Shown piece after piece: positions 11,343 to 62,100 of a DNA stretch of 64,000 nt (position 1 is the stretch's first letter; the number at the start of each line of letters is the position of its first letter). Under the pieces are notes generated by a model. The model was not told the origin of the DNA. It ran no database searches and saw nothing but the letters and a program-made list of their open reading frames with translations. Both the position numbers and the translations under genes were made by a program. The DNA comes from an uncultured Candidatus Binatia bacterium (GTDB taxonomy: Bacteria; Desulfobacterota; Binatia; UBA9968; JAJDTQ01): assembly GCA_964291295.2 (NCBI GenBank), contig OZ219754.1, forward strand, positions 1,088,001 to 1,152,000, written 5' to 3'.

Positions 11343-11388
11343 TGAACCAGGACTCATGAACCAGGACTCATGAACCAGGACTCATGAA
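11343..11388. repeat. 14-bp tandem repeat (TGAACCAGGACTCA) x3 overlapping the amidase start codon
   Basis: Three perfect copies; each junction creates an ATG. Confidence 0.95.
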
Positions 11389-12205
11389 ATTCATTGCCGC
11401 GGCAGTGCAGATGCTGGCCACGTCCGACAAGGAAGCGAACCTTCGGGAGGCGGAAAAGTGGATTCGCCGGGCGCAGGCCGGGGGCGCGCACCTTGTGGTG
11501 TTGCCGGAAGTGTTCAACTGGAGGGGTCCTGGCAGGGACACCGCGGCCAACGCCGAGCCGGTGCCCGGTCCCTCCACGGGGCGGATGGGCGCACTGGCGG
11601 CCGAGCTCGGGCTCTACCTGCTGGCCGGTTCGATCCTCGAGAGCGCCGGGCCGGACGGCCGCGCCTACAACACCAGCGTGCTCATCGGCCCGGGTGCCGG
11701 GATCATCGCCAAGTACCGGAAAATACACCTGTTCGATGTCGACATCGAGGGTGAAGCCGCCATCCGCGAGTCCGAATTCCGGCACCCGGGAGAGGCTGTC
11801 GTGGTGGCCGACACCCCTCTCGGTCTCATGGGGCTTTCGGTCTGCTACGATCTCCGCTTTCCGGAGCTCTACCGCCGGCTGACCGCCGCCGGCGCCAAGG
11901 TCATCTTCGTGCCGTCGGTGTTCACGGTCCCCACCGGCCAGGCCCACTGGAGAACGCTTCTGCGCGCCCGCGCCATCGAGAACCAGGTGTATGTCATCGC
12001 CCCGGACCAGACCGGCCGGCATCCCGCCAGCATGGACGCCTACGGACACTCCATGATCGTCGATCCGTGGGGCAAGGTCATCGCCGAGACCGGCACCGAG
12101 CCGGACCTGGTCCTGGCCGCCATCGACCTCGACTACCTGGCGGATGTTCGACGCCAGCTGCCGGTGCTGGAACACCGCCGGGCATTTCTCGCCCCGGACT
12201 CGTAA
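11384..12205 (+). CDS. carbon-nitrogen hydrolase, Nit1/deaminated glutathione amidase-like
   Basis: Glu-Lys-Cys triad motifs LPE, YRKIHLFDV and SVCYDLRFPE; RARAIENQ and YGHSMIVDPWG. Confidence 0.92.
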   Translation: MKFIAAAVQMLATSDKEANLREAEKWIRRAQAGGAHLVVLPEVFNWRGPGRDTAANAEPVPGPSTGRMGALAAELGLYLLAGSILESAGPDGRAYNTSVLIGPGAGIIAKYRKIHLFDVDIEGEAAIRESEFRHPGEAVVVADTPLGLMGLSVCYDLRFPELYRRLTAAGAKVIFVPSVFTVPTGQAHWRTLLRARAIENQVYVIAPDQTGRHPASMDAYGHSMIVDPWGKVIAETGTEPDLVLAAIDLDYLADVRRQLPVLEHRRAFLAPDS

Positions 12206-12356: not shown

Positions 12357-12977
12357 TCAGGAGAGCGGGATCATGATGTGTTCCCGGTAGGCGGGGCGCT
12401 CGCACAGCCGGTCGTACCATGCTTCCACGTTGGGCATGGAGGGGCGCTCGATGGGCATGGTGAACCAGCGGTAAGCCCAGACGCCGACGGGGATGTCGCC
12501 GATGCTGAAGGAATCGCCCGCGAGGTAGCGCCGGCCTGCGAGGTGGCGCTCGACGATCTCCCACTTGGGTACGGCTTCCCCGACCGCCTTCTCGATGGCG
12601 GTGGGGTCGCGCTCGGCTTCCGGGGTCCGGACGATGCCGAAGAAGATCGGTACCATGAACGCATTCAGCGTGCTCAATTGCCAGTCCATCCAGCGGTTGG
12701 CGCTGCCCCGCCCCTCGGGAGTCCCGGGCAGGAGCCTGCCGCCCTCGTACTTGTTGACGAGATACCGGACGATGCTGTTGGATTCCCACAGGACGAAGTC
12801 GCCGTCCTCGATGGTGGGGATCACGCCGTTGGGGTTCAGGTCCAGATAGGACCGCTCCCGGTTGCCGCCGAATTCCCCGCCCAAGTCCACGCGCTCGAAC
12901 GGAATCCGAAGCTCCCCGCAACACCACAGAACCTTCTGCACGTTGGACGAAGTCTTCCTTCCCCAGATTTTCAACAC
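12357..12977 (-). CDS. glutathione S-transferase family protein (GstB-like)
   Basis: WGRKTSSNVQKV, LNPNGVIP and LWESNSIVRYL motifs. Confidence 0.93.
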   Translation of the reverse strand: MLKIWGRKTSSNVQKVLWCCGELRIPFERVDLGGEFGGNRERSYLDLNPNGVIPTIEDGDFVLWESNSIVRYLVNKYEGGRLLPGTPEGRGSANRWMDWQLSTLNAFMVPIFFGIVRTPEAERDPTAIEKAVGEAVPKWEIVERHLAGRRYLAGDSFSIGDIPVGVWAYRWFTMPIERPSMPNVEAWYDRLCERPAYREHIMIPLS

Positions 12978-20585: not shown

Positions 20586-21191
20586 TCACGGGCCCAGATT
20601 GGCGGGCGTCACCACCGAGCGCAGGGTGTGCGTGCGGTAGCCGTCGTTCCTCGGGTAGCGCGGGTCCCGCCGGCCCGTTCTCGTGGTCACGCTGATCCGC
20701 AGTTGTCGTATCCGGTTTGCCACCGCCGTGACGTTGCCGGCGGCGTCGAGGTATTCCACGGTGAAGCCTTCCACGTCCTCGGCCAGGGGCTGTCCGCCGC
20801 CGCCCGTGTCGCGCCGGAGCATCCGGCGGTCCGGGTCGTGAAAGTAGACGACGCGTTCGTTGGCGTCCGCCAGGTCGCCGTCACCGTTGTGATCCGCGAA
20901 GAGGATCAGACGCGCCGGGTCGTAGGTCAGCCCGACCACGCCCGCCTGTACCGGGTCGTACCCGGCGGCGCGCGCCTCCCGGATCACCGTGGTCATGGCT
21001 GCCCGGGCATTCTGTTGCATGGCGCCCACCTGTTCCTGCAGGGCGTAGGTGGTGAGTTGTCCGGTAAAGCTGGTGGCCACCGCCGCCAGCAGTATTCCCT
21101 GGATCGCCAGGACCACGAGCAGTTCGATGAGGGTGAATCCCCGGCCGCCGCCCCCGGCTGCCGGCCCGGGGCCGCACGGCCGCGGCGTCAC
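20586..21191 (-). CDS. pilW: type IV minor pilin, PilW-like
   Basis: G|FTLIELLV prepilin motif, then QQNARAAMT..REARAAGY; GTG start overlaps the upstream stop. Confidence 0.8.
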   Translation of the reverse strand: MTPRPCGPGPAAGGGGRGFTLIELLVVLAIQGILLAAVATSFTGQLTTYALQEQVGAMQQNARAAMTTVIREARAAGYDPVQAGVVGLTYDPARLILFADHNGDGDLADANERVVYFHDPDRRMLRRDTGGGGQPLAEDVEGFTVEYLDAAGNVTAVANRIRQLRISVTTRTGRRDPRYPRNDGYRTHTLRSVVTPANLGP

Positions 21192-21577
21192 CGGTCCACC
21201 AGGGTCCGGAGGACCGCCGCGCGCGCGTCCCGGGACCGGTACACCGTTACGGTGACGGTGTTCAGGCCGGCCTCCGGCACGTCTTGCCGAACCTCGGTGA
21301 CGCGCTTGTAGCGGGAAAATCCCGGCATCGAACCATAGTTCTCCGTGGTGACGGCCATGCCTCCCGAGCCGCGCCCCTTGACGGTCTCGATCCGGTCCTG
21401 GGCCAGCAGGGTGGCGACGCCGCGGTCGCGGCTCCTCAGGTTTCCCTCGATGACGCCGATGGTGAGTCGCCCCAGGCCCAGCAGTCCGGTGGACAGGATC
21501 AGCATCGCCACCAGCAGTTCGATCATGGAAAAGCCCCGGCAGGACAGGCGGTGCCGCTCCATCGTCCATCCGTTCAC
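21188..21577 (-). CDS. pilV: type IV minor pilin, PilV-like
   Basis: G|FSMIELLVAMLILSTGLLGL and ATLLAQDRIE motifs. Confidence 0.8.
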   Translation of the reverse strand: MNGWTMERHRLSCRGFSMIELLVAMLILSTGLLGLGRLTIGVIEGNLRSRDRGVATLLAQDRIETVKGRGSGGMAVTTENYGSMPGFSRYKRVTEVRQDVPEAGLNTVTVTVYRSRDARAAVLRTLVDR

Positions 21578-22041
21578 CGGACCCGCACGCGGCCGGCGAT
21601 GCTGATGCTGATGCGTTTCGCCCCGCCGGCGTTGGTCAGCGTGATGGTGGCGAGATTGCTGGCGGTGCCCCGGGGACTGAAGATCGGGTTGTTGGTGGAA
21701 CGCATCGCCACGTCCCCATAGTCCTCCCGCAGGTCTCTGGTGACGGTCCATTCTCCGGGGTCCACGGCGCCGTCGTTGTCGGTATCGTCGAGGAGCCGGT
21801 ACTGATGGTCGTTCAGGAAGAAGATCCGGTGCCGGTTGTTGCGCTGGATGGCCTTCATGCGAGCCCACATGAGGTCCCCCGTCAGTTGCCGCACCGCGCC
21901 GTTGAGGCGATGCCTGGGCAGAACCTTCAGATAGCCCGGCACTGCGATGGCGATCATGATTCCGGCCAAGGCCAGGGTGATCAGTTGACCCAGCAACGAG
22001 AAGCCGGCGGTCTGGCGGAGTGCTCCCGGCATCGGCGTCAT
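21574..22041 (-). CDS. fimT: type IV minor pilin, FimT/GspH-like
   Basis: G|FSLLGQLI..IAVP, ARMKAI and IFSPRG motifs; C-terminal ISIAGRVR. Confidence 0.8.
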   Translation of the reverse strand: MTPMPGALRQTAGFSLLGQLITLALAGIMIAIAVPGYLKVLPRHRLNGAVRQLTGDLMWARMKAIQRNNRHRIFFLNDHQYRLLDDTDNDGAVDPGEWTVTRDLREDYGDVAMRSTNNPIFSPRGTASNLATITLTNAGGAKRISISIAGRVRVR

Positions 22042-22874
22042 CCTGCGCGGGACAGGTGAAACAGTGCGCCCATGCATAGAAAAGGGGCAAACGGCAAGGG
22101 CGTGGTGAGCGAGACTTCCTCCCTGAAGACCATGAGACCGACGCCCCAGAGGGTTCCGGCGAGGGCGCTCGAGAACAGGATGGCGGGCACGGCTTCCCAG
22201 CCGGCGAAGGCGCCGATCATTGCCAACAGCTTGATGTCGCCGCCGCCCACGCCGTCCCGGCCCGTCACGGCGCGGTAGCCCCTGGCGGTGCCCAGGAGCA
22301 GGCCTGCGCCCGACAGCAGGCCCAGGAGGGAGCCGAGCGGCGACGGCCAGTGCTGGATCGACAGGGCCGGGGCGCACCACGACAGGGCGAGGGCGCAGAC
22401 CGTGCCCCATGCGCTGATGACATCCGGGATGAGGCCCGTTTCGAAGTCGATGACGGCCGCCGCCAGCAGCGCGCCGGCGAAGGTCAGCCGGACGACCAGG
22501 GAAAGGCCGAGGCCGAATCGGCGGGTCCATGCCAGCGTCAGTGCGGCGGTGCAAAGCTCCACCAGGAAATAGCGCGGGGGAATGCGGACGCCGCACTGGC
22601 CGCAGCGGGCGCGCAGCAGCAGGTAGCCCGCCAGGGGCACCAAGGCCCGGAGCGGTATCGGCCTGTTGCATGAGCGGCAGTGCGACGCGGGTACGAGCAC
22701 CGACTCGCCCACCGGCAGTCGGGTGATGCAGAGGTTCAGGAAGCTGCCAAGACAGGCTCCGAGAACCAGGGACAGAATATCGAAGGACAGACAGTCGAAG
22801 GGCGGGATTTCAAAGGACGGTTGTTCAAGGAACAGCAGCTTCTGTGCGGGTCCCGGTGCCGAGTTTCCGACCAT
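22038..22874 (-). CDS. pilD: prepilin peptidase (A24)
   Basis: GSFLNLCITRLP, two CxxC pairs, ID...IPD, GGGDIKL and LPFAPF motifs; start uncertain. Confidence 0.92.
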   Translation of the reverse strand: MVGNSAPGPAQKLLFLEQPSFEIPPFDCLSFDILSLVLGACLGSFLNLCITRLPVGESVLVPASHCRSCNRPIPLRALVPLAGYLLLRARCGQCGVRIPPRYFLVELCTAALTLAWTRRFGLGLSLVVRLTFAGALLAAAVIDFETGLIPDVISAWGTVCALALSWCAPALSIQHWPSPLGSLLGLLSGAGLLLGTARGYRAVTGRDGVGGGDIKLLAMIGAFAGWEAVPAILFSSALAGTLWGVGLMVFREEVSLTTPLPFAPFLCMGALFHLSRAG

Positions 22875-22923
22875 GCGGGAATAGTCGGCACCGGACCGTC
22901 AAACCGTAGAGTCCAGCAGTCGG

Positions 22924-23062
22924 TGCCGCGGAAGATTTTTGTGGGACAAAGATCCGCCAGAGTCCGGATGGGTGCAGGATGGGTGCGGGATTGTTGCGGA
23001 ATGGGCGTCGAATTCGCTCCCGATAATGGGACAAGGGCGGGGACTTCCGGCATTCCGGGCCA
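22924..23062 (-). repeat. dispersed ~110-140 bp repeat, copy A (inverted relative to B and C)
   Basis: Reverse complement reads GAATGCCGGAA...CCTTGTCCCATTATCGG...GGACTCTGGCGGATCTTTGTCCCACAAAAATCTTCCGCGGC, matching 24466-24603 and 59881-59991. Confidence 0.85.
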
Positions 23063-23180
23063 AGGAACGCGCAAGAGTCCGCGGGAAGGACCGCGTGGGA
23101 AGATTCGAGCAAAAGTCCGGGCGAAGGACCTCACATGGCCCCTGCCGGCCACCTGCCGAAGCGTCCCGCGGCGCGGGCTG

Positions 23181-23993
23181 TCAGTCGGCCAGCATCTCTT
23201 TCTGCATCGGCGTCAGCGCATTGGCGCATCCCGTCATGCTGTTGCGGGTAACCAGCCCGGCCAGTTGCTCCTCGCTCCAACCCTCGGTTCCCTCCGGACG
23301 CCGGGGCACCACCAAGTAGCGGGTTTCGGCGGTGCTGTCCACCACCCGCACCTCGACAGACTCGGGCAGCTCCAGCCCCATCTCCTTCAGCACCCTGCGG
23401 GGGTCCACCACCACCCGGGTGCGGTAGTTGGTGCTCTTGTACCAGTCCGGGGGTTGGCCCAGCAGTTGCCGGGGGTAGCAGGAGCAGAGCGTGCACACCA
23501 CCACATGGTGCACCGATTCGGTGTTCTCCACCGCGATGAGCTGGTTGGCCGTGGACATGTCGATGCCCAGTTCACCGGCGGCGGCGATGCCGTCCTCGAA
23601 CAGACGCTTCCTGTACTCCGGGTCGGTCCAGGCCCGGGCCACCACCCGCGAGCCCTGATGCCACGAGACCGCATCGTTCTCGTCGATCTTGCGCCGCACC
23701 TCGTCGGTGCTGACGATGCCCTTTTCCCGCAACAGGTTGCCCAAGGCCAGCATCTGCTTCTCGAACGGCGTGTACACGTGTTCCCGCATGTCGATGGGGT
23801 TGTTGGCATGAAGCTGCTCGAACACGTCGTCGTGACTGTGGTCGTGGCCGTGCTTGACCTGCCGCACCTCGTCGGTGTTCAGCACCCCCCTCTCCTTCAG
23901 CAGGTCCGCTGTCGCGCGGGCGCGCCGTTCGAAATATCCCGGCCCCTGGTCCGTTGCCGGCTCGGTGTGTTCCTGCTGCGGTTCCCTGGCCAT
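23181..23993 (-). CDS. nthA: Co-type nitrile hydratase alpha / thiocyanate hydrolase gamma-like subunit with N-terminal helical extension
   Basis: VVARAWTDPEY, VCTLCSCYP metal-binding motif, PPDWYKS..YR.R and DSTAETRYLVVP.RP; start ATG 23993. Confidence 0.9.
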   Translation of the reverse strand: MAREPQQEHTEPATDQGPGYFERRARATADLLKERGVLNTDEVRQVKHGHDHSHDDVFEQLHANNPIDMREHVYTPFEKQMLALGNLLREKGIVSTDEVRRKIDENDAVSWHQGSRVVARAWTDPEYRKRLFEDGIAAAGELGIDMSTANQLIAVENTESVHHVVVCTLCSCYPRQLLGQPPDWYKSTNYRTRVVVDPRRVLKEMGLELPESVEVRVVDSTAETRYLVVPRRPEGTEGWSEEQLAGLVTRNSMTGCANALTPMQKEMLAD

Positions 23994-24015
23994 GAAGTCC
24001 CCCCTTGAAGCGCAT

Positions 24016-24306
24016 TCAGCGCGGTTCCAGCCACTGCTCGAAAATGTCCGCGTAGATCCTGTTGACACCTTCGGGTGCAGGCCGATCGTCCCACACGTGG
24101 GCCAGGTCGAACTCGATGGAGTACAGATTGGCCATGGGCAGACCGTCCTGGCCGAAGGAGAGCAATTCCGGATCCCGGAAGCGACCGCGGATATCCGCCA
24201 CCACGCCGCTCTTGCCCCTGAGATACTGGGGCGAGCGAACGTGGTGCCCCAAGGTCAACGTATCCCGGACTCGTACCGGATCGCCCGGCTTGTAGCGAAA
24301 ACTCAT
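24016..24306 (-). CDS. nitrile hydratase beta C-terminal SH3-like domain only (ScnA-like)
   Basis: 96 aa: YKPGDPVRV, HHVRSPQYLRGKSG, LYSIEF...VW and DIFEQWLEP. Confidence 0.88.
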   Translation of the reverse strand: MSFRYKPGDPVRVRDTLTLGHHVRSPQYLRGKSGVVADIRGRFRDPELLSFGQDGLPMANLYSIEFDLAHVWDDRPAPEGVNRIYADIFEQWLEPR

Positions 24307-24465
24307 CCCGGCAGTCTCATGCGTGACGAGGCGATTGTCAAGAACGTTCCAACGATACTGCCTGCGCGGAGTGCCGGAACCTCCGTGACGGTCCCCGGTC
24401 GCGCCTGCGCCGTGCTCGCGGGATGGGCGACGGCGGGGCGGCAGCGGATGGAGAGAAGTGTCCCG

Positions 24466-24603
24466 GTTTTCGTTCAGAATGCCGGAAACCCGCACCTTGC
24501 CCCATTATCGGACATGAATAATCGGGCATGAATTGTCGGACACGAATCGGGCGCCAAAGGGCACGTTGGTGGACCGCTGTCCCGCGAAAATCGTCCGCGG
24601 CGC
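24466..24603 (+). repeat. dispersed repeat, copy B (internal triplication of ATCGGACATGAAT-like unit)
   Basis: TTTTCGTTCAGAATGCCGGAAACCCGCACCTTGCCCCATTATCGGACATGAA...TGGTGGACCGCTGTCCCGCGAAAATCGTCCGCGGCGC. Confidence 0.85.
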
Positions 24604-24609
24604 GAATTC

Positions 24610-25695
24610 CTATGGTTCATCCTGCAGTTCAAGCCATCGCCGGATCAGCGGAAAGACCTCCTTGCGGGCGTTCCTGCCGAGGATCAGGTCGAAATGCCCG
24701 TAGTTCGTCTCCTCGTCCGGGTCCGACCAGAAGATCATGAGATCGCGGTCCCTTGAGGCAACTTCCCGGTAGACCGTTCTCAGGGCGTCCGGCGGCGCGA
24801 TGGGGTCGGCCGCGCCTCCCACCAGGAGCAGCGGGATGCGGACGCCGGCCAGGGCGTCCCGGTAGCTGGCGGCGCCGTCCGCGGACACGAACTCGTCCTT
24901 GTCCACGGTCGTGATCAACTGTTTCAGGACACCGGGGTTGACCGGGACCAGGAGCGTTTCCAGCAGTTGCCGGGCGACCTGCGGGTCCATGTTCCCGGGG
25001 TTGTAGAAGACTTCCCTGAATCCGGGAATCATGAACAGCAACCGGTTCAGGGCGGACGCGTTCCAGGAGAGAAGCGCGTTCCGCAGCAGCGGCCGCCGGT
25101 CCAGTTCGAGCAGGATGTCGAGCCGGTCCTGCTCGCGGCTGTCGAAAGTCATGGGCGCGGCGATGCCGACGATTCCCGCCACGCCGTGCTCCGCGGCCGT
25201 GCCGGCGTAGGCCAGGGCGAGCGCCCCGCCCAACTCGTAGCCCACCACGAATACCTCGGTCGCCCCGGCGGTCTTCCCGACGTACTCGATGACCGCGGGC
25301 AGGTCGTCCTTCAGGACGTCGTCGAGGGTCCAGGGCCGGTTGCCCCAACCGAGGGGTTGAAGGCTCCGGCCCGTCCCCCGCAGCGACAGATTCCAGACGT
25401 CGAACCCGGCCTCCGCCAGATACCTGGCCAGGCTGGCGCTGCCGAAATCGAGAAAACGGCTGTCCACGAGCAGACCGTGGATGAGGATGACGGGGCGCGG
25501 ATGGCGCAGGTTCCTGTTGAGACGGAAACGCTTGGCGGAGATCTCGAACCTGGTGCCGGTGACGGCCCAGTGGCGCGTCCATGTCACGTAGGCGTCGTCC
25601 AGGGAGGCCGCCCCGGCCGGCCCCGCCGAAAGGCAGCACAGCGCCGCCGCCACACGGCAGAGGAAAAGCCGCAGCCGGACGGGAAACCGTGTCAT
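24610..25695 (-). CDS. exported alpha/beta-hydrolase-fold protein (PhaC/lipase-like) with non-canonical nucleophile elbow
   Basis: Signal-peptide-like N-terminus; PVILIHGL, GFDVW..SLRGTGRS, GYELGG, ADPIAP and YGHFDLILG motifs. Start 25695 or 25713. Confidence 0.82.
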   Translation of the reverse strand: MTRFPVRLRLFLCRVAAALCCLSAGPAGAASLDDAYVTWTRHWAVTGTRFEISAKRFRLNRNLRHPRPVILIHGLLVDSRFLDFGSASLARYLAEAGFDVWNLSLRGTGRSLQPLGWGNRPWTLDDVLKDDLPAVIEYVGKTAGATEVFVVGYELGGALALAYAGTAAEHGVAGIVGIAAPMTFDSREQDRLDILLELDRRPLLRNALLSWNASALNRLLFMIPGFREVFYNPGNMDPQVARQLLETLLVPVNPGVLKQLITTVDKDEFVSADGAASYRDALAGVRIPLLLVGGAADPIAPPDALRTVYREVASRDRDLMIFWSDPDEETNYGHFDLILGRNARKEVFPLIRRWLELQDEP

Positions 25696-33006: not shown

Positions 33007-33034
33007 ACGCGCTTGGGTCGAGGAAACCCCGTCA

Positions 33035-33817
33035 GTGGCGCCCGGCATCGAATTCGAATCCAGGGACGGCATCGCCTTCATCACGCTGAACCGGCCCGAG
33101 CGGCTCAACGCCATCAACGAGGAGATGTGGGCGGCGTTGGGGCGCGTGTGGGATGCGTTCGCGGCGGATTCGACGCTGCGGGCGGCGGTCGTCCACGGCG
33201 CCGGCGGCCGGGCGTTCTCCACCGGCATGGACCTGAAGGAGCGGGCGGCGGCGGGCGACCCGCGGGCGCGGGAGTTCTGGACCTCGGCCCTGGCCCGCGA
33301 CCCGGGGCGCCGGGAGCCCGTGTGGAAGCCCATGATCGCCGCCGTGCATGGATACTGCCTGGCCGGCGGCTTCGAGATCGCGCTCTCCTGCGACATTCGC
33401 CTCTGCAGCGAGGACGCCAGCTTCGGGTTCCCCGAGATCAAGCGCGGCTTCTTCCCCGGCAGTTCGGGCACCGTGCGGCTGCCCCGCATCGCGCCGCTGG
33501 GCATGGCCCTGGAGATGCTCTACACCGGCGAGTCCATTTCCGCCGCCGAAGCCCTCCGGTGTGGTTTGGTGAACCGGGTCGTGCCGCGGGACAAGCTGAT
33601 GGCCGAGGCCGAGCGGCTCGCCCGCGCCATCGCCGACGGCCCGCCGCTGGCCTTGCAGGCGGTCAAGGAGGTGGTGTTGCGGGGTCTCGACCTGCCGCTG
33701 GCCGACGCCGTCCGCTTCGAGGCCGGGTTCCGCGCCATGGTGGGCGGCACCGAGGACGCCCGCGAGGGTCCCCGGGCCTTCAGCGAGAAGCGCAAGCCCC
33801 GGTACGAGGGGCGCTGA
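33035..33817 (+). CDS. enoyl-CoA hydratase/isomerase (crotonase)
   Basis: LNRPERLNA, AFSTGMDL, GGFEIALSCD and FPEIKRG (both catalytic Glu present); C-terminal FSEKRKP. Confidence 0.94.
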   Translation: MAPGIEFESRDGIAFITLNRPERLNAINEEMWAALGRVWDAFAADSTLRAAVVHGAGGRAFSTGMDLKERAAAGDPRAREFWTSALARDPGRREPVWKPMIAAVHGYCLAGGFEIALSCDIRLCSEDASFGFPEIKRGFFPGSSGTVRLPRIAPLGMALEMLYTGESISAAEALRCGLVNRVVPRDKLMAEAERLARAIADGPPLALQAVKEVVLRGLDLPLADAVRFEAGFRAMVGGTEDAREGPRAFSEKRKPRYEGR

Positions 33818-33879
33818 CGGCAGGGTCCCCTCATCCCGCCCCGGTGCCGGGAAGGGCGGGGGAGCCTGGAGAATGCAGG

Positions 33880-35508
33880 ATGTACCAGGATCTCAGGGAG
33901 TACCTCGAACTGCTGGACCGGCACGGGCTCCTGATGCGTGTGGCGGCCCCGGTGGACAAGGACACCGAACTGCACCCGCTGGTGCGCTGGCAGTTCCTGG
34001 GCCTGCCGGATCATCAGCGCAAGGCGTTCCTGTTCGAGAATGTGGTGGATGCCAGGGGCCGGCGTTACGAGACTCCCGTGGTGCTCGGGGCACTGGCGTC
34101 CAACGAGGCCGTCTACGCCCTGGGCATGGGCTGCGAGCCGGGCAGGAGTTTCGAGAAATGGGCCGCCGCGGTGGCCGCGCCGCTGGCGCCGGAGCTGGTG
34201 GACAGCGGTCCGGTCCGGGAGGAGATCCACGTCGGCGACGGCCTCCTGGAGCATGGCGGCCTGGACGAGTTCCCGGTGCCCATCTCGACGCCGGGTTTCG
34301 ACAACGGGCCTTACCTGACCGCGTGTCACTGGATCACCAAGGATCCGGACACCGGCATCCGCAACGTCGGCAACTACCGCGGCCAGATCAAGTCCCCCAC
34401 CCGGACCGGCATCTACCTGATCAGCCCGCAGCAGGATCTTGCCATCCACTGGAACAAAGCCAGCGCCCTGGGGCGGCCGCTGCCCGCCGCCGGGGTCATC
34501 GGCGCGGTACCGTGCCTCTCCTACGTGGCGGTGCAGAAGATCGCCTACGGAGTAGACGAACTGGGCGTGGCCGGCGCCATTCTGGGCCGCCCGCTGCCCA
34601 TGGTCAAATGCGAGACCGTGGACCTGGAAGTGCCGGCGCATGCGGAGATCGTCATCGAAGGCTACATCCGTACGGACCGGCTTGAGCCCGAGGGCCCCTT
34701 CGGCGAGTCCCACGGCTACATGGATCCGCGCAGCCTGAGTCCGGTGTTCGAGGTGACCTGCATCACCCACCGCCGGAACCCGCACTACGTGGGAGTGCTG
34801 AGCCAGGTGACGCCCAGCGAGAGCAGCAAGATCAAGCATCGCGGCTGGGAGTCACTGGTGCTGGACCACCTGCGCAACCACTGCAATCTCCACAGCGTGG
34901 TCCGGGTGGGCATGCACGAGCCCCTGGTGAACCTGCGCCAGTTCGTGGTCGTGCAGATGCGCAAGACCCACAAGCTGGAGCCCTGGCAGGCGATGATGGC
35001 GGTGCTGGGGTTCCGCTACGACCTCGGCAAGGTGGTGATCGCGGTGGACGACGATATCGACCCGGAGAACTTCGCGGCGGTCAACTGGGCCATCTGCCAC
35101 CGCTCGCAGCCCCACCGGGACGTGCGCATCATCGAAGGACGACAGACCGTGCACTCGCCCATCAACTTGGTGCGCATGCACGGCCACGCCGGCGACTACG
35201 ACAGCGAGGACTCCGCGCTGCTCATCGACGCCACCCGGAAGGCCGGGTTTCCGCCGGTGTCGCTGCCCTCCCGGGAATACATGGAGCGGGCGCGGAAGCT
35301 GTGGCAGGAACTGGGGCTGCCGGAGCTCCGCCACGGCACCCCGTGGCACGGCTATTCCCTGGGCCTGTGGCCGGCGGCACTCGACGACGAGGCGGCCTTG
35401 GCGGTGAAGGGAGAGTACCACCGCATCGGCGCCAGGCTGGACGAGCAGGCCGTGCCGGTGGCGCGCGGCGAGCGGCTCCAGGACGTGCAAAAGCGGTGGA
35501 AGCCCTGA
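33880..35508 (+). CDS. UbiD family (prFMN-dependent) decarboxylase
   Basis: YQDLREYL, KAFLFENV, RNVGNYR, EGPFGE, VDDDID and LIDATRK motifs; start ATG 33880. Confidence 0.93.
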   Translation: MYQDLREYLELLDRHGLLMRVAAPVDKDTELHPLVRWQFLGLPDHQRKAFLFENVVDARGRRYETPVVLGALASNEAVYALGMGCEPGRSFEKWAAAVAAPLAPELVDSGPVREEIHVGDGLLEHGGLDEFPVPISTPGFDNGPYLTACHWITKDPDTGIRNVGNYRGQIKSPTRTGIYLISPQQDLAIHWNKASALGRPLPAAGVIGAVPCLSYVAVQKIAYGVDELGVAGAILGRPLPMVKCETVDLEVPAHAEIVIEGYIRTDRLEPEGPFGESHGYMDPRSLSPVFEVTCITHRRNPHYVGVLSQVTPSESSKIKHRGWESLVLDHLRNHCNLHSVVRVGMHEPLVNLRQFVVVQMRKTHKLEPWQAMMAVLGFRYDLGKVVIAVDDDIDPENFAAVNWAICHRSQPHRDVRIIEGRQTVHSPINLVRMHGHAGDYDSEDSALLIDATRKAGFPPVSLPSREYMERARKLWQELGLPELRHGTPWHGYSLGLWPAALDDEAALAVKGEYHRIGARLDEQAVPVARGERLQDVQKRWKP

Positions 35509-60306: not shown

Positions 60307-62100
60307 TTACTCTGTCTTGCGGCCGCCGAAGGAGCCGCGCAACTCGCCGCTCTTCTTGTCCTTGGACGTGATGTCGAACACGCCGCCCACCTCTTCCGCG
60401 TTCGGTCCGAAGAATTGGCCGCTGTACTCCCTCACCTCGTACTTGCTGCCATCCGCGCTCGTGGCAATACCCATCGCATCACGATGGTTTTGAGCAAGGC
60501 TAGATGCAAAACCCGGTGTATCGTAGCCGTCGCCTTCGGCGTTGACATTGGTCACTTTGCTGCCCGAGAACCCGTTGCCGTCGATGGTGCCGTGGAATGT
60601 GGCGATAATCCCGTCAGTATCGCCCCCTCCTGGATAAAAGACGAAATTCCAAAAAATATCGGTCTTGATGGTGCTTTCCCCGAAATCTACCGTTGTGGTT
60701 GAGGGTCCATCAAAACCGCCGATACTTCCTTTGCCCTCAGCGTGCTGTACGCGCCTCTGCCAAACTGCATGACCCCTGTAGGAGGCGCTGCCGGAGCTTG
60801 GCATGTTGGCAGTCGGGGTAGGGCCCTGGCCGGGCAGTGCCCGGACGAATGAGATGCCAAGGTCGGCCCTCTTGGCCTGTACCTTCTCCGTGTGCCACAT
60901 GCCGTAGTTCATGTGCTCGTAGGGCTTCGCCTCCGGGAAATCCGGCACATCGTAGACGAAAATCTGCCGATAAGTGAATCCCGTGACTCCCTCGTTTCCG
61001 GTGCGCAGAAGCCAGGTCTTTTTCCCGTCGCTATCCGTGTAGTAGTAGACCCCCACGCCCGCATTCGCGTCCGGGGCGTCCGCATTGATCCAGTCCCAGG
61101 AATTCGTCTTGTCGAATTTCGTATCCTCCTGGGTGTCGACAACATAGAACTCGCCCTCCGCCCGCATCACCTTGTAGGTCTGGCTGTCAACCGTGACCCC
61201 GCCGAACGGGTTTTCTGCCGTGATCGTGGCGGTCACCGTGATCGGCTGATCGCTGTCGTCCTTCGCCCTGCGGTAAGACTTCACCGCCTTGCTTTTGGTG
61301 ACATACTTGTCCACCAACCAGAAACGGGACTTCTCCGAGTCGCTGTAGGAACCGAACTCGAAGGTCCGTGGGTGGAACCCCGTCTGGCCAGCCACCTCCG
61401 GCGTGCTGTCGGTCGCCGCCTTGTAAGGGACGGGTTCCTTTCGTTGGGTGGTCCGTGAATTGTCGTTCATGCTGCCTCTCTTGCCGGTCGTGACGGTCTT
61501 GCCCCCGGTGGTGGTTTCGACCGTGGGCGCACCCGCCGTGATGGTCGTGTCGCCGTACCCGTAGGTCATCCCCTCCACATGCCGGACCTCCTTGGTCGCA
61601 GCATCCTTCGCCATCTTCGCCTTCTCCGCCGCCGTCGCCGCCTGAGCCTCGGCCTTCGCCTGCGCCGCCTCGGCCAGCAATTTGGCCTTGGCCGCCACAT
61701 TCACGTCGTTCGTCGCCGCAGCCTTGTCCGATTCCATCTTGGCCTTGTCGTACTCCGCCTTCGCCATGTTCGCCGCCGTCCGGGCCGCCTCCGCGTAGGC
61801 CCTCGCCGTCATCTCCCCATTGGCAACATGGACGGACATGAGGTCCGCAAGCGCCGCTTCCGCCTCATCCGCCGCCGTCCCCGCGTTGTCGGACGCCGTC
61901 TTGGCCTTGCCGGACGCCGTCATGGCCGCCGTCTGAGCCTCCGTCAGGGCCGTCTCGACTTCCGTCGGCGGATCCGGGGTCGTCGCCGTGTTGCTGCTTC
62001 CGCCGCATGCCGCAAGCCCCATGACAAGCACCACCGCGCAGAAGATCGTCGCCAGATTCCCGTACATCATCCTGTACATCAGTATCCTCGTCCTTTTCAT
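60307..62100 (-). CDS. surface lipoprotein with Ala-rich coiled-coil stalk and C-terminal TbpB-like beta-barrel
   Basis: Lipobox LAAC-GG; Ala/Lys/Glu helical region; MPSSGSASYRG, TIDGNGFSG and GQFFGPNAEEVGGVF...GSFGG motifs. Confidence 0.85.
   Translation of the reverse strand: MKRTRILMYRMMYGNLATIFCAVVLVMGLAACGGSSNTATTPDPPTEVETALTEAQTAAMTASGKAKTASDNAGTAADEAEAALADLMSVHVANGEMTARAYAEAARTAANMAKAEYDKAKMESDKAAATNDVNVAAKAKLLAEAAQAKAEAQAATAAEKAKMAKDAATKEVRHVEGMTYGYGDTTITAGAPTVETTTGGKTVTTGKRGSMNDNSRTTQRKEPVPYKAATDSTPEVAGQTGFHPRTFEFGSYSDSEKSRFWLVDKYVTKSKAVKSYRRAKDDSDQPITVTATITAENPFGGVTVDSQTYKVMRAEGEFYVVDTQEDTKFDKTNSWDWINADAPDANAGVGVYYYTDSDGKKTWLLRTGNEGVTGFTYRQIFVYDVPDFPEAKPYEHMNYGMWHTEKVQAKRADLGISFVRALPGQGPTPTANMPSSGSASYRGHAVWQRRVQHAEGKGSIGGFDGPSTTTVDFGESTIKTDIFWNFVFYPGGGDTDGIIATFHGTIDGNGFSGSKVTNVNAEGDGYDTPGFASSLAQNHRDAMGIATSADGSKYEVREYSGQFFGPNAEEVGGVFDITSKDKKSGELRGSFGGRKTE

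Follow-up and report, generated by a model that had tools for sequence, protein, structure and literature searches.

A two-gene cobalt-type nitrile hydratase without a beta N-terminal domain in Candidatus Binatia, and a possible origin of its alpha-subunit extension

Introduction

How a nitrile hydratase (NHase) could be built from an alpha subunit and half of a beta subunit is the question raised by two adjacent genes on contig OZ219754.1 of an uncultured Candidatus Binatia bacterium (assembly GCA_964291295.2). The 64,000-nucleotide stretch that was analysed (positions 1,088,001 to 1,152,000 of the forward strand; hereafter the window) encodes, at 23181..24306, a 96-amino-acid (aa) protein consisting of the C-terminal domain of NHase beta (beta-C) and a 270-aa alpha subunit with a long N-terminal extension. 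In known NHases, the helical N-terminal domain of beta (beta-N) packs on the N-terminal helices of alpha and lines the substrate channel, and its residue beta-Arg56 of the Fe-type enzymes corresponds to beta-Arg52 in Pseudonocardia thermophila. The original prediction, made from the letters of the DNA, described a two-gene Co-type NHase without the beta N-domain and supposed that ScnB, the beta-N counterpart of thiocyanate hydrolase (SCNase), had been circularly permuted and grafted onto alpha. The first of these statements is correct. As to the origin of the pair, the evidence leans modestly toward a derivative of the split-beta lineage, a two-polypeptide member of the NHase/SCNase group of Binatia-like bacteria in which the beta-N gene would have been lost and an N-terminal segment of alpha tandemly duplicated.

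The gene pair encodes alpha and the C-terminal domain of beta

Both genes were found where the original prediction had placed them, and both are on the minus strand. The upstream gene (24016..24306, stop codon included) encodes the SH3-like C-terminal domain of NHase beta only; its 96-aa product matched Pfam NHase_beta_C (E = 5.3e-17; residues 4 to 95 on positions 11 to 98 of the 98 of the profile) and covered only positions 138 to 225 of the 226 of NCBIfam nitrile_beta, with 58.3 bits, under the cut-off of 152.2. A full-length beta, helical N-domain and C-domain together, as in the canonical alpha2 beta2 enzymes, is not what these 96 residues provide. Beta-C aligned with NHase beta chains in the PDB at positions 130 to 218, including the arginine of the GH-x-R motif; this active-site arginine of the C-domain is R24 of beta-C and was invariant in 23 sequences. 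The match to ScnA was weak (E = 0.23). Beta-C cannot be longer in most relatives, since the stop-to-stop frames measure only 100 to 102 aa (11/22 loci), and the lack of longer or fused forms among 118 candidates is weak evidence in itself.

The beta-C stop and the alpha ATG are 22 nucleotides (nt) apart, and this spacer holds, as read from the sequence, a Shine-Dalgarno-like AAGGGGGGA (ribosome-binding site AAGGGGGG; 23998..24006, minus strand), which supports the start of alpha at 23993. The alpha gene (23181..23993, minus strand, stop codon included) encodes 270 aa, of which residues 78 to 257 matched Pfam NHase_alpha (PF02979; E = 3.6e-78, 261.6 bits against a cut-off of 27.2). Alpha narrowly passed NCBIfam nitrile_alph (TIGR01323; 252.4 bits against 249.85) and stayed under the cut-off of thiocyan_alph (TIGR03887; 208.3 bits against 291.45). 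The NHase hidden Markov model (HMM) scan that had been proposed with the original prediction thus gave NHase_beta_C for the small gene and NHase_alpha for the large one, together with an NHase_beta_N match at alpha residues 8 to 54 that is taken up below. Identity to solved and plasmid-borne alphas was 47 to 53%. The catalytic core, assigned from Pfam and solved alphas, spans residues 107 to 270 (23184..23675, minus strand), and the Co-type metal-binding claw C167-T-L-C-S-C172 (23478..23495, minus strand) is intact, as had been claimed, and invariant in 28 family sequences. It is followed by Y-P-R, with an arginine where 10 canonical two-subunit alphas carry tryptophan (CSCYPW); CSCYPR is common to the family, to an alpha annotated as SCNase gamma and to the alphas of three-subunit NHases.

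The predicted complex of alpha and beta-C scored 0.90, against 0.00 for the best of 3 controls, which supports binding of the modelled chains (the mark for this score was reached by 116/157 solved complexes and 2/215 mismatched pairs). At least 84% of contacts recurred between model runs, and the predicted local distance difference test score (pLDDT) of the partner was at least 83. This pass may reflect likeness only, because solved NHase complexes exist. The modelled interface comprised alpha residues 150-151, 153, 168-169, 195-200, 211-212 and 214-224, and so T168-L169 of the claw, and beta-C residues 24, 26, 28, 40, 43, 46, 61, 68, 71-72 and 78-87, with R24, P26, Y28 and R40 among them. It named no residue of alpha 1 to 110, which by the tool's own statement is no evidence for lack of contact.

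Related loci hold the pair, and beta-N and accessory genes were not found beside it

The alpha was found at 23 loci (GTDB, one genome per species), in metagenome-assembled genomes labelled Candidatus Binatia, Thermodesulfobacteriota, Deltaproteobacteria or Syntrophobacterales. Identity was 70 to 87% in the 22 full-length loci; the other (L023) ends at a contig edge and matches residues 141 to 270 only, at 93% identity. Beta-C lay directly upstream of alpha in 22/22 loci with a complete alpha, and no other conserved gene was common to the window and the 23 loci except paralogous glutathione S-transferase (GST) and UbiD-type genes. One family member is named "nitrile hydratase subunit alpha" by NCBI. 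Searched by word index with residues 1 to 110, 5.8 billion clusters yielded 14 proteins with the extension (236 to 288 aa). A phmmer search of residues 1 to 75 over 1.84 billion representatives gave 6 matches at E <= 0.001, of which 3 were clear relatives, all of this family, and 3 were weak (P0019 to P0021; E = 5e-5 to 5e-4; 334 to 3021 aa).

Annotated plasmid operons supplied 11 beta-N and 10 accessory proteins, from which HMMs were made and run over 7049 six-frame stop-to-stop open reading frames (ORFs) of at least 30 aa from the window and the 23 related loci (+/-8 kb). Below E = 0.28 nothing but alpha ORFs matched, and the accessory HMM touched these only weakly; neither an accessory gene nor a separate beta-N gene, which together with separate beta-C and alpha would make a three-subunit enzyme, was found there. 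Pfam on 54 window ORFs selected by GC content at third codon positions (GC3) likewise gave no further NHase family. The pair therefore appears as the self-contained two-gene unit that had been proposed, with no beta-N or activator gene nearby. Among 260 candidates there was no longer or fused form of the alpha N-terminus, which is weak evidence. A separate counterpart of the beta-N arginine segment, D-E-x-R-x-x-I-E in the 11 beta-N sequences, was not found in these sequences either; its look-alike in alpha, D97 to D104, occurs also in alphas that have a beta-N of their own.

The enzyme might nonetheless be truly three-subunit, if its beta-N gene lies at a distant site of the genome; the extra hairpin of alpha would then be an unrelated decoration. 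All sampled relatives of the alpha core possess a beta-N polypeptide or domain, and our search reached only 64 kb of the source genome besides the flanks of the relatives. Subunit genes were, however, adjacent in 16/16 NHase/SCNase loci fetched from plasmids, and the pair stays together while its flanks change. We regard a distant beta-N gene as quite improbable.

The alpha N-terminal extension contains a repeated hairpin

An extension of 77 residues precedes the Pfam match of alpha, and the strings quoted in the original prediction were all present in alpha: module 1 at residues 19 to 45, HGHDHSHDD at 48 to 56 and module 2 at 66 to 104. The extension opens with an acidic, poorly conserved tail (residues 1 to 17; 23943..23993; pLDDT below 50), followed by module 1, an extra helix-turn-helix hairpin delimited by predicted helices and by its repeat with module 2 (residues 18 to 47; 23853..23942). 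The His-rich HGHDHSHDD (residues 48 to 56; 23826..23852) and a linker delimited by conservation and hhalign (residues 57 to 76; 23766..23825), which holds the start of the motif NPIDxxEHExTxFEKQ (65 to 80), lead to module 2, the regular alpha N-terminal hairpin, where the Pfam NHase_alpha match opens (residues 77 to 106; 23676..23765). All of these parts are on the minus strand.

AlphaFold2 (AF2) models of the whole alpha (mean pLDDT 52.6) and of residues 1 to 114 (mean pLDDT 63.5, predicted template-modelling score 0.50), both of low confidence, agreed on the secondary structure of the extension. Helices were predicted at residues 20 to 34 and 40 to 48 in module 1 (turn 35 to 39) and at 76 to 90 and 96 to 106 in module 2 (turn 91 to 95), with residues 1 to 17 in coil and 49 to 75 mostly so. 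Modules 1 and 2 would thus be two hairpins of equal size, since each has a predicted 15-residue helix, a turn and a helix of 9 to 11 residues. Foldseek of the low-confidence model of residues 1 to 114 gave 0 matches in the PDB at E <= 0.001, and the best score of an atlas search with residues 1 to 76 (0.77), to a cluster with NHase_beta_N in 13% of its members, is a lead only.

That the two modules are homologous, as the original prediction held, was borne out. Their likeness was far beyond chance in 29/29 distinct members (Smith-Waterman scores 47 to 94, z = 7 to 19), 0/300 shuffles reaching the observed score in any of them. In P0013 the modules were identical at 18/37 positions, an E-x-H-E prefix among them, and hhalign paired module 1 with module 2 at 97% (E = 9e-11, score 47.6). 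The ratio of nonsynonymous to synonymous substitution rates (dN/dS) was 0.45 in the tail, 0.20 in module 1, 0.03 in the His-rich stretch, 0.24 in the linker, 0.07 in module 2 and 0.09 in the core, showing purifying selection on every part of alpha except the first 17 residues. Y20, F21 and R24 of module 1, H52 of the His-rich stretch and V57, F58, E59, H62, N65, P66, H72 and T75 of the linker were invariant in 28 sequences, and H50 and H54 were present in at least 90% of them.

The His-rich stretch had been taken for a fusion linker. Such a role is not required, as 7/12 other alphas, three-subunit alphas likewise, have a His-rich N-terminus of their own (4 to 9 His in the first 25 residues). 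HGHDHSHDD is, as far as the sequences tell, most readily understood as the original N-terminus of alpha, which an addition in front of it has made internal. Divergent members of the family keep scattered His within residues 1 to 22, and tandem duplication of a unit made up of His tail, linker and hairpin would fit this observation.

Module 1 resembles alpha hairpins, and a short motif before module 2 resembles beta-N

Module 1 had been likened to the second half of ScnB and module 2 to its first half, so that the extension would be a circularly permuted beta-N grafted onto alpha, the arginine of DEVRRKID replacing that of beta-N and the His-rich stretch serving as the fusion linker. The likeness of module 1 held in part. 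Residues 8 to 54 matched Pfam NHase_beta_N (positions 56 to 103 of 115; 24.7 bits against a cut-off of 21.5), and in hhalign comparisons of profiles built from the fetched plasmid sequences module 1 paired with the second beta-N hairpin (beta-N positions 66 to 96) at 94% (score 38.5). Alpha hairpins (95 to 97%) and module 2 (97%) matched equally well or better: three-subunit alpha N-hairpins gave 96.8% (score 49.3) and canonical plus other alpha N-hairpins 95.2% (score 45.0), so that beta-N is further from module 1 than alpha hairpins or module 2 are. Ordinary alpha N-termini, taken as a control, themselves paired with the second beta-N hairpin at 84 to 92%. The Pfam NHase_beta_N match is therefore no proof of beta origin, and at the level of sequence the alpha hairpin and the second beta-N hairpin form one class that this profile cannot separate. 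A tblastn search of module 1 against 72,556 plasmids hit 7 records, all at E >= 1, with nthA under the match in 3, nthB in 1 and no annotation in 3, one of which was placed by its coordinates in the alpha N-hairpin of L041. An accessory protein was rejected as the best source of module 1, its hhalign match being the weakest (77%, score 29) and TIGR03889 giving no match at E <= 1.

The case for module 2 was likewise divided. Residues 65 to 106 stood nearer to the first half of three-subunit-type beta-N (positions 21 to 62; 97.5%, E = 8.6e-12, score 61.4) than to three-subunit alpha N-termini (score 44.1), with Smith-Waterman means of 66 to 83 against 51 to 61. Ordinary alpha N-termini failed to match the first half of beta-N (0.7% and 30% in hhalign), and the summed permuted scores (61.4 + 38.5) exceeded that of the colinear alignment (65.2). 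The signal was traced to residues 57 to 80, which gave 94.2% (E = 1.2e-7) with three-subunit beta-N positions 21 to 36 and 0.1 to 1.1% with alpha N-termini. It comes from 16 residues, NPIDxxEHExTxFEKQ (65 to 80), which pair with PIxxxEHELxPWEKR of three-subunit-type beta-N. The hairpin proper (77 to 106) showed no preference: alpha hairpins and the second beta-N hairpin aligned with it equally. Module 2 also aligned with the N-hairpin of solved alphas, kept the alpha-specific E-K-G turn and stood 12 residues from the core start G-[SA]-[RK]-V-V-A-R-A-W, the same spacing as in three-subunit alphas.

What stands of the proposed graft is thus the short beta-N-arm-like motif, which on these alignments is genuinely present before module 2; a whole permuted beta-N is not demonstrated, and module 2 occupies the regular position of the alpha hairpin. 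Nor did the proposed role of DEVRRKID find support. Counterparts of D-E-V-R-R-K-I-D (E-I-R-R-Q-I-E; E-x-R-R-x-I-E) occur in 4/7 three-subunit alphas, and the enzymes concerned have a beta-N of their own carrying E-E-K-R-R-G-V-E, so the motif is no sign of beta-N replacement; an arginine of this segment was not among the residues modelled at the interface with beta-C. Taking these points together with the frequency of His-rich N-termini among alphas, we consider a permuted beta-N unlikely.

In all NHase sets fetched, the alpha N-hairpin, the second beta-N hairpin and the C-terminal part of the accessory protein share the motif aromatic-aromatic-E ... A ... L-L-x-E-K-G ... E-E-L, with profile matches of 77 to 97% among them. 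This shared motif suggests that one ancient module has been reused across NHase subunits. Some accessory proteins also end in His-rich tails.

The alpha core groups with split-beta enzymes

A maximum-likelihood tree of the alpha core (26 rows, 157 columns), with which an earlier tree of 20 rows agreed, separated 10 canonical alphas from 7 three-subunit alphas, the SCNase-gamma-annotated alpha and the family (support 95/94). Within the second group the family joined the SCNase-gamma-annotated alpha (97/89), which sits on a long branch, and the two together were sister to the 7 three-subunit alphas, the family not being nested among these. On this tree the alpha core belongs with the split-beta group of three-subunit NHases and SCNase.

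The likeness to three-subunit NHases (AnhD/AnhE/AnhA of Streptomyces canus, ToyJKL and the plasmid sets) is extensive. These enzymes and the family have in common a separate small beta-C, the CTLCSC claw followed by YPR, a His-rich alpha N-terminus with a following hairpin carrying E-x-R-R-x-I-E, the absence of an accessory gene, nearby cobalt transporter genes and an alpha core of the same major group (PMC7329996, excerpt). Kinship of the alpha core, arginine after the claw and lack of an accessory gene, the marks of the three-subunit type, are thus found in the family. Three-subunit NHases differ in encoding a beta-N subunit of about 110 aa and in having alphas of 208 to 226 aa with one hairpin, whereas the family alpha has two hairpins and 270 aa. 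The three-subunit operons that we fetched lacked an accessory gene and had Co/Ni transporters nearby. Their gene order was betaC-alpha-betaN in four proteobacterial plasmids, from Rhizobium, Burkholderia, Polymorphobacter and Microvirga (L029, L038, L039, L040), and betaN-betaC-alpha in Streptomyces and Planktothrix plasmids (L036, L037), the beta halves being mostly annotated only as 'SH3-like domain-containing protein'. Either order turns into betaC-alpha, the Binatia arrangement, when one end gene is removed.

SCNase (ScnA/ScnB/ScnC) resembles the family in its split beta and in ScnC, which has a His-rich N-terminus and an arginine after the claw; its PDB chain 2dd4_C aligns from alpha residue 47, and it is the nearest outgroup in the alpha-core tree. 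It differs in having ScnB, of which no ORF was found in the window or the 23 loci, and the family alpha does not reach the TIGR03887 cut-off expected of a gamma subunit. Canonical Co-type NHases (Pseudonocardia thermophila, Rhodococcus and Klebsiella plasmid operons) share with the family the alpha fold, the claw and the GH-x-R arginine of beta-C, but have a full beta of 217 to 240 aa and an accessory gene. Eukaryotic beta-alpha fusion NHases (Monosiga and others) also have a His-rich stretch immediately before the alpha part (PMC3323583, excerpt); in these a whole beta precedes alpha, whereas in the family only a hairpin of about 30 residues precedes the His-rich stretch and beta-C is a separate gene. 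On a Roseomonas plasmid, a 283-aa protein (L024:2098-2949) spans nitrile_beta positions 5 to 226 with a long insert, holding beta-N and beta-C in one chain, and adjoins a gene annotated scnC, then cbtB and cbtA. A literature search found three-subunit, fused and engineered NHases described; an NHase lacking beta-N was not found there, nor Binatia with nitrile hydratase.

Genomic neighbourhood and possible substrates

A gene of the isochorismatase family lay downstream of alpha in 21/23 loci; RutB and biuret amidohydrolase came nearest to its product, which did not reach the cut-off of either. It is reduced to a 19-aa remnant at L008 (L008:8827-8883), and none was found at L022 or in the window, where 306 bp without a gene (22875-23180) lie directly downstream of alpha. 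The gene-free stretch and the L008 remnant indicate that this partner was lost more than once. Within 8 kb of the pair, cbtB and an adjoining CbtA-like gene, both of the cobalt-uptake kind, were found at 7/23 loci.

These neighbours, and the place of the alpha core in the tree, also bear on whether nitriles are the substrate. The pair might act on some other small C-N or C-S compound (thiocyanate, a cyanamide-like compound or a ureido-nitrile), or alpha might work essentially alone with beta-C as a scaffold. Consistent with this, the core groups with the SCNase-gamma-annotated protein and has the SCNase-like arginine after its claw, the downstream gene is more like RutB and biuret amidohydrolase than like classical amidases, and beta-N, which lines the channel in known NHases, is absent. 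Against it, alpha passes nitrile_alph and falls far under the thiocyan_alph cut-off, and the long branch of the SCNase-annotated sequence makes its placement uncertain. We hold this reading to be improbable.

An Rfam scan of the whole window gave no match, and no promoter or terminator was found in a scan of 22800-24800. Elsewhere in the window, pseudopilin-like genes with an N-terminal methylation motif and a GspH domain, with a prepilin peptidase (A24) last, lie at 20586-22874 (minus strand), directly downstream of the pair, and are unrelated to its neighbours in other genomes. A carbon-nitrogen hydrolase of the nitrilase superfamily (11384-12205, plus strand; Pfam E = 7e-62) adjoins a GST gene (12357-12977, minus strand), and 13 related loci have a GST homologue (about 29% identity) within a few kb of the NHase pair. 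At 33013-35508 (plus strand) the longest ORF (831 aa) overlaps an enoyl-CoA hydratase ORF (33035-33817), and its UbiD-family match spans residues 298 to 711 only; the real start of this UbiD-type gene is probably well downstream of 33013. At 13 loci, UbiD-family genes were also found within 8 kb of the NHase pair. A 597-aa protein (60307-62100, minus strand) has a TbpB-type beta-barrel lobe (Pfam TbpB_B_D, E = 4.5e-17).

Discussion

The history toward which the evidence leans, a derivative of the split-beta lineage, would start from an ancestor with beta-N and beta-C as separate polypeptides and no accessory protein encoded. The beta-N gene would then have been lost in the family, and an alpha segment made up of the His-rich tail and the helix-turn-helix hairpin duplicated in tandem, leaving the order degenerate tail, hairpin 1, His-rich stretch, conserved linker, hairpin 2 and catalytic core. 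In the resulting enzyme, the 96-aa beta-C would bind alpha on the side of the claw, in the manner of solved NHases, and provide the GH-x-R arginine. The extra hairpin may pack on hairpin 2 and cover the surface that beta-N covers in other NHases, as a structural stand-in rather than a proven catalytic one. Cobalt would be inserted without an accessory protein, possibly aided by the conserved His-rich stretch, and the Co-dependent hydratase would turn a nitrile into the amide that the downstream amidohydrolase then cleaves.

Several points weigh against this account. The 16-residue beta-N-arm-like motif is, on the alignments, not explained by simple duplication of alpha. The search for beta-N covered the 64-kb window and +/-8 kb of the 23 relatives only; the outgroups were small and all plasmid-derived (12 alphas, 11 beta-N, 10 accessory proteins and 6 to 7 three-subunit sets); hhalign E-values are pairwise only; and dN/dS was pooled pairwise over 23 coding sequences, the pairs being non-independent. 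The amidohydrolase gene is missing from the window, L008 and L022. In the three-subunit ScNHase, alpha with a single beta half retained 0.2 to 4% of full activity and alpha alone 0% (Table 2 of PMC7329996, excerpt), so that loss of beta-N may cripple nitrile hydration unless it is compensated. Beta-Arg56 in beta-N is reported to be essential, R56Y and R56E being inactive (PMC7193024, excerpt, citing Piersma 2000), and no equivalent of this arginine was identified in the family.

Maturation of a three-subunit NHase proceeds without an activator (PMC7329996, excerpt), and ToyJ alpha alone is reported to be active and fully modified (Nelp et al. 2014, as cited in excerpts of PMC7329996 and PMC11672702). 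We tentatively raise, as a possibility with clearly less than an even chance, that the pair is a natural minimal NHase, active and self-maturing with 366 residues per protomer, which dispenses with beta-N and its arginine and in which the duplicated hairpin, the beta-N-arm-like motif and the His cluster would rebuild the lost surface and load cobalt without a chaperone.

NHases are industrial catalysts, and they are harder to express and engineer because they require a complete beta and an activator of their own. A conserved form without beta-N would put to the test whether an NHase can do without beta-Arg56 and the beta helical domain, and how chaperone-free cobalt insertion and cysteine oxidation proceed. 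If no nitrile proved to be a substrate, the pair would be a pointer, in a phylum about which little is known, to a new class of substrates. The pair also bears on how domains are re-partitioned in multi-subunit enzymes: the beta of NHases occurs whole, split, fused and, in Binatia, half-lost, and in their N-terminal hairpins alpha and beta seem to carry copies of the same module.

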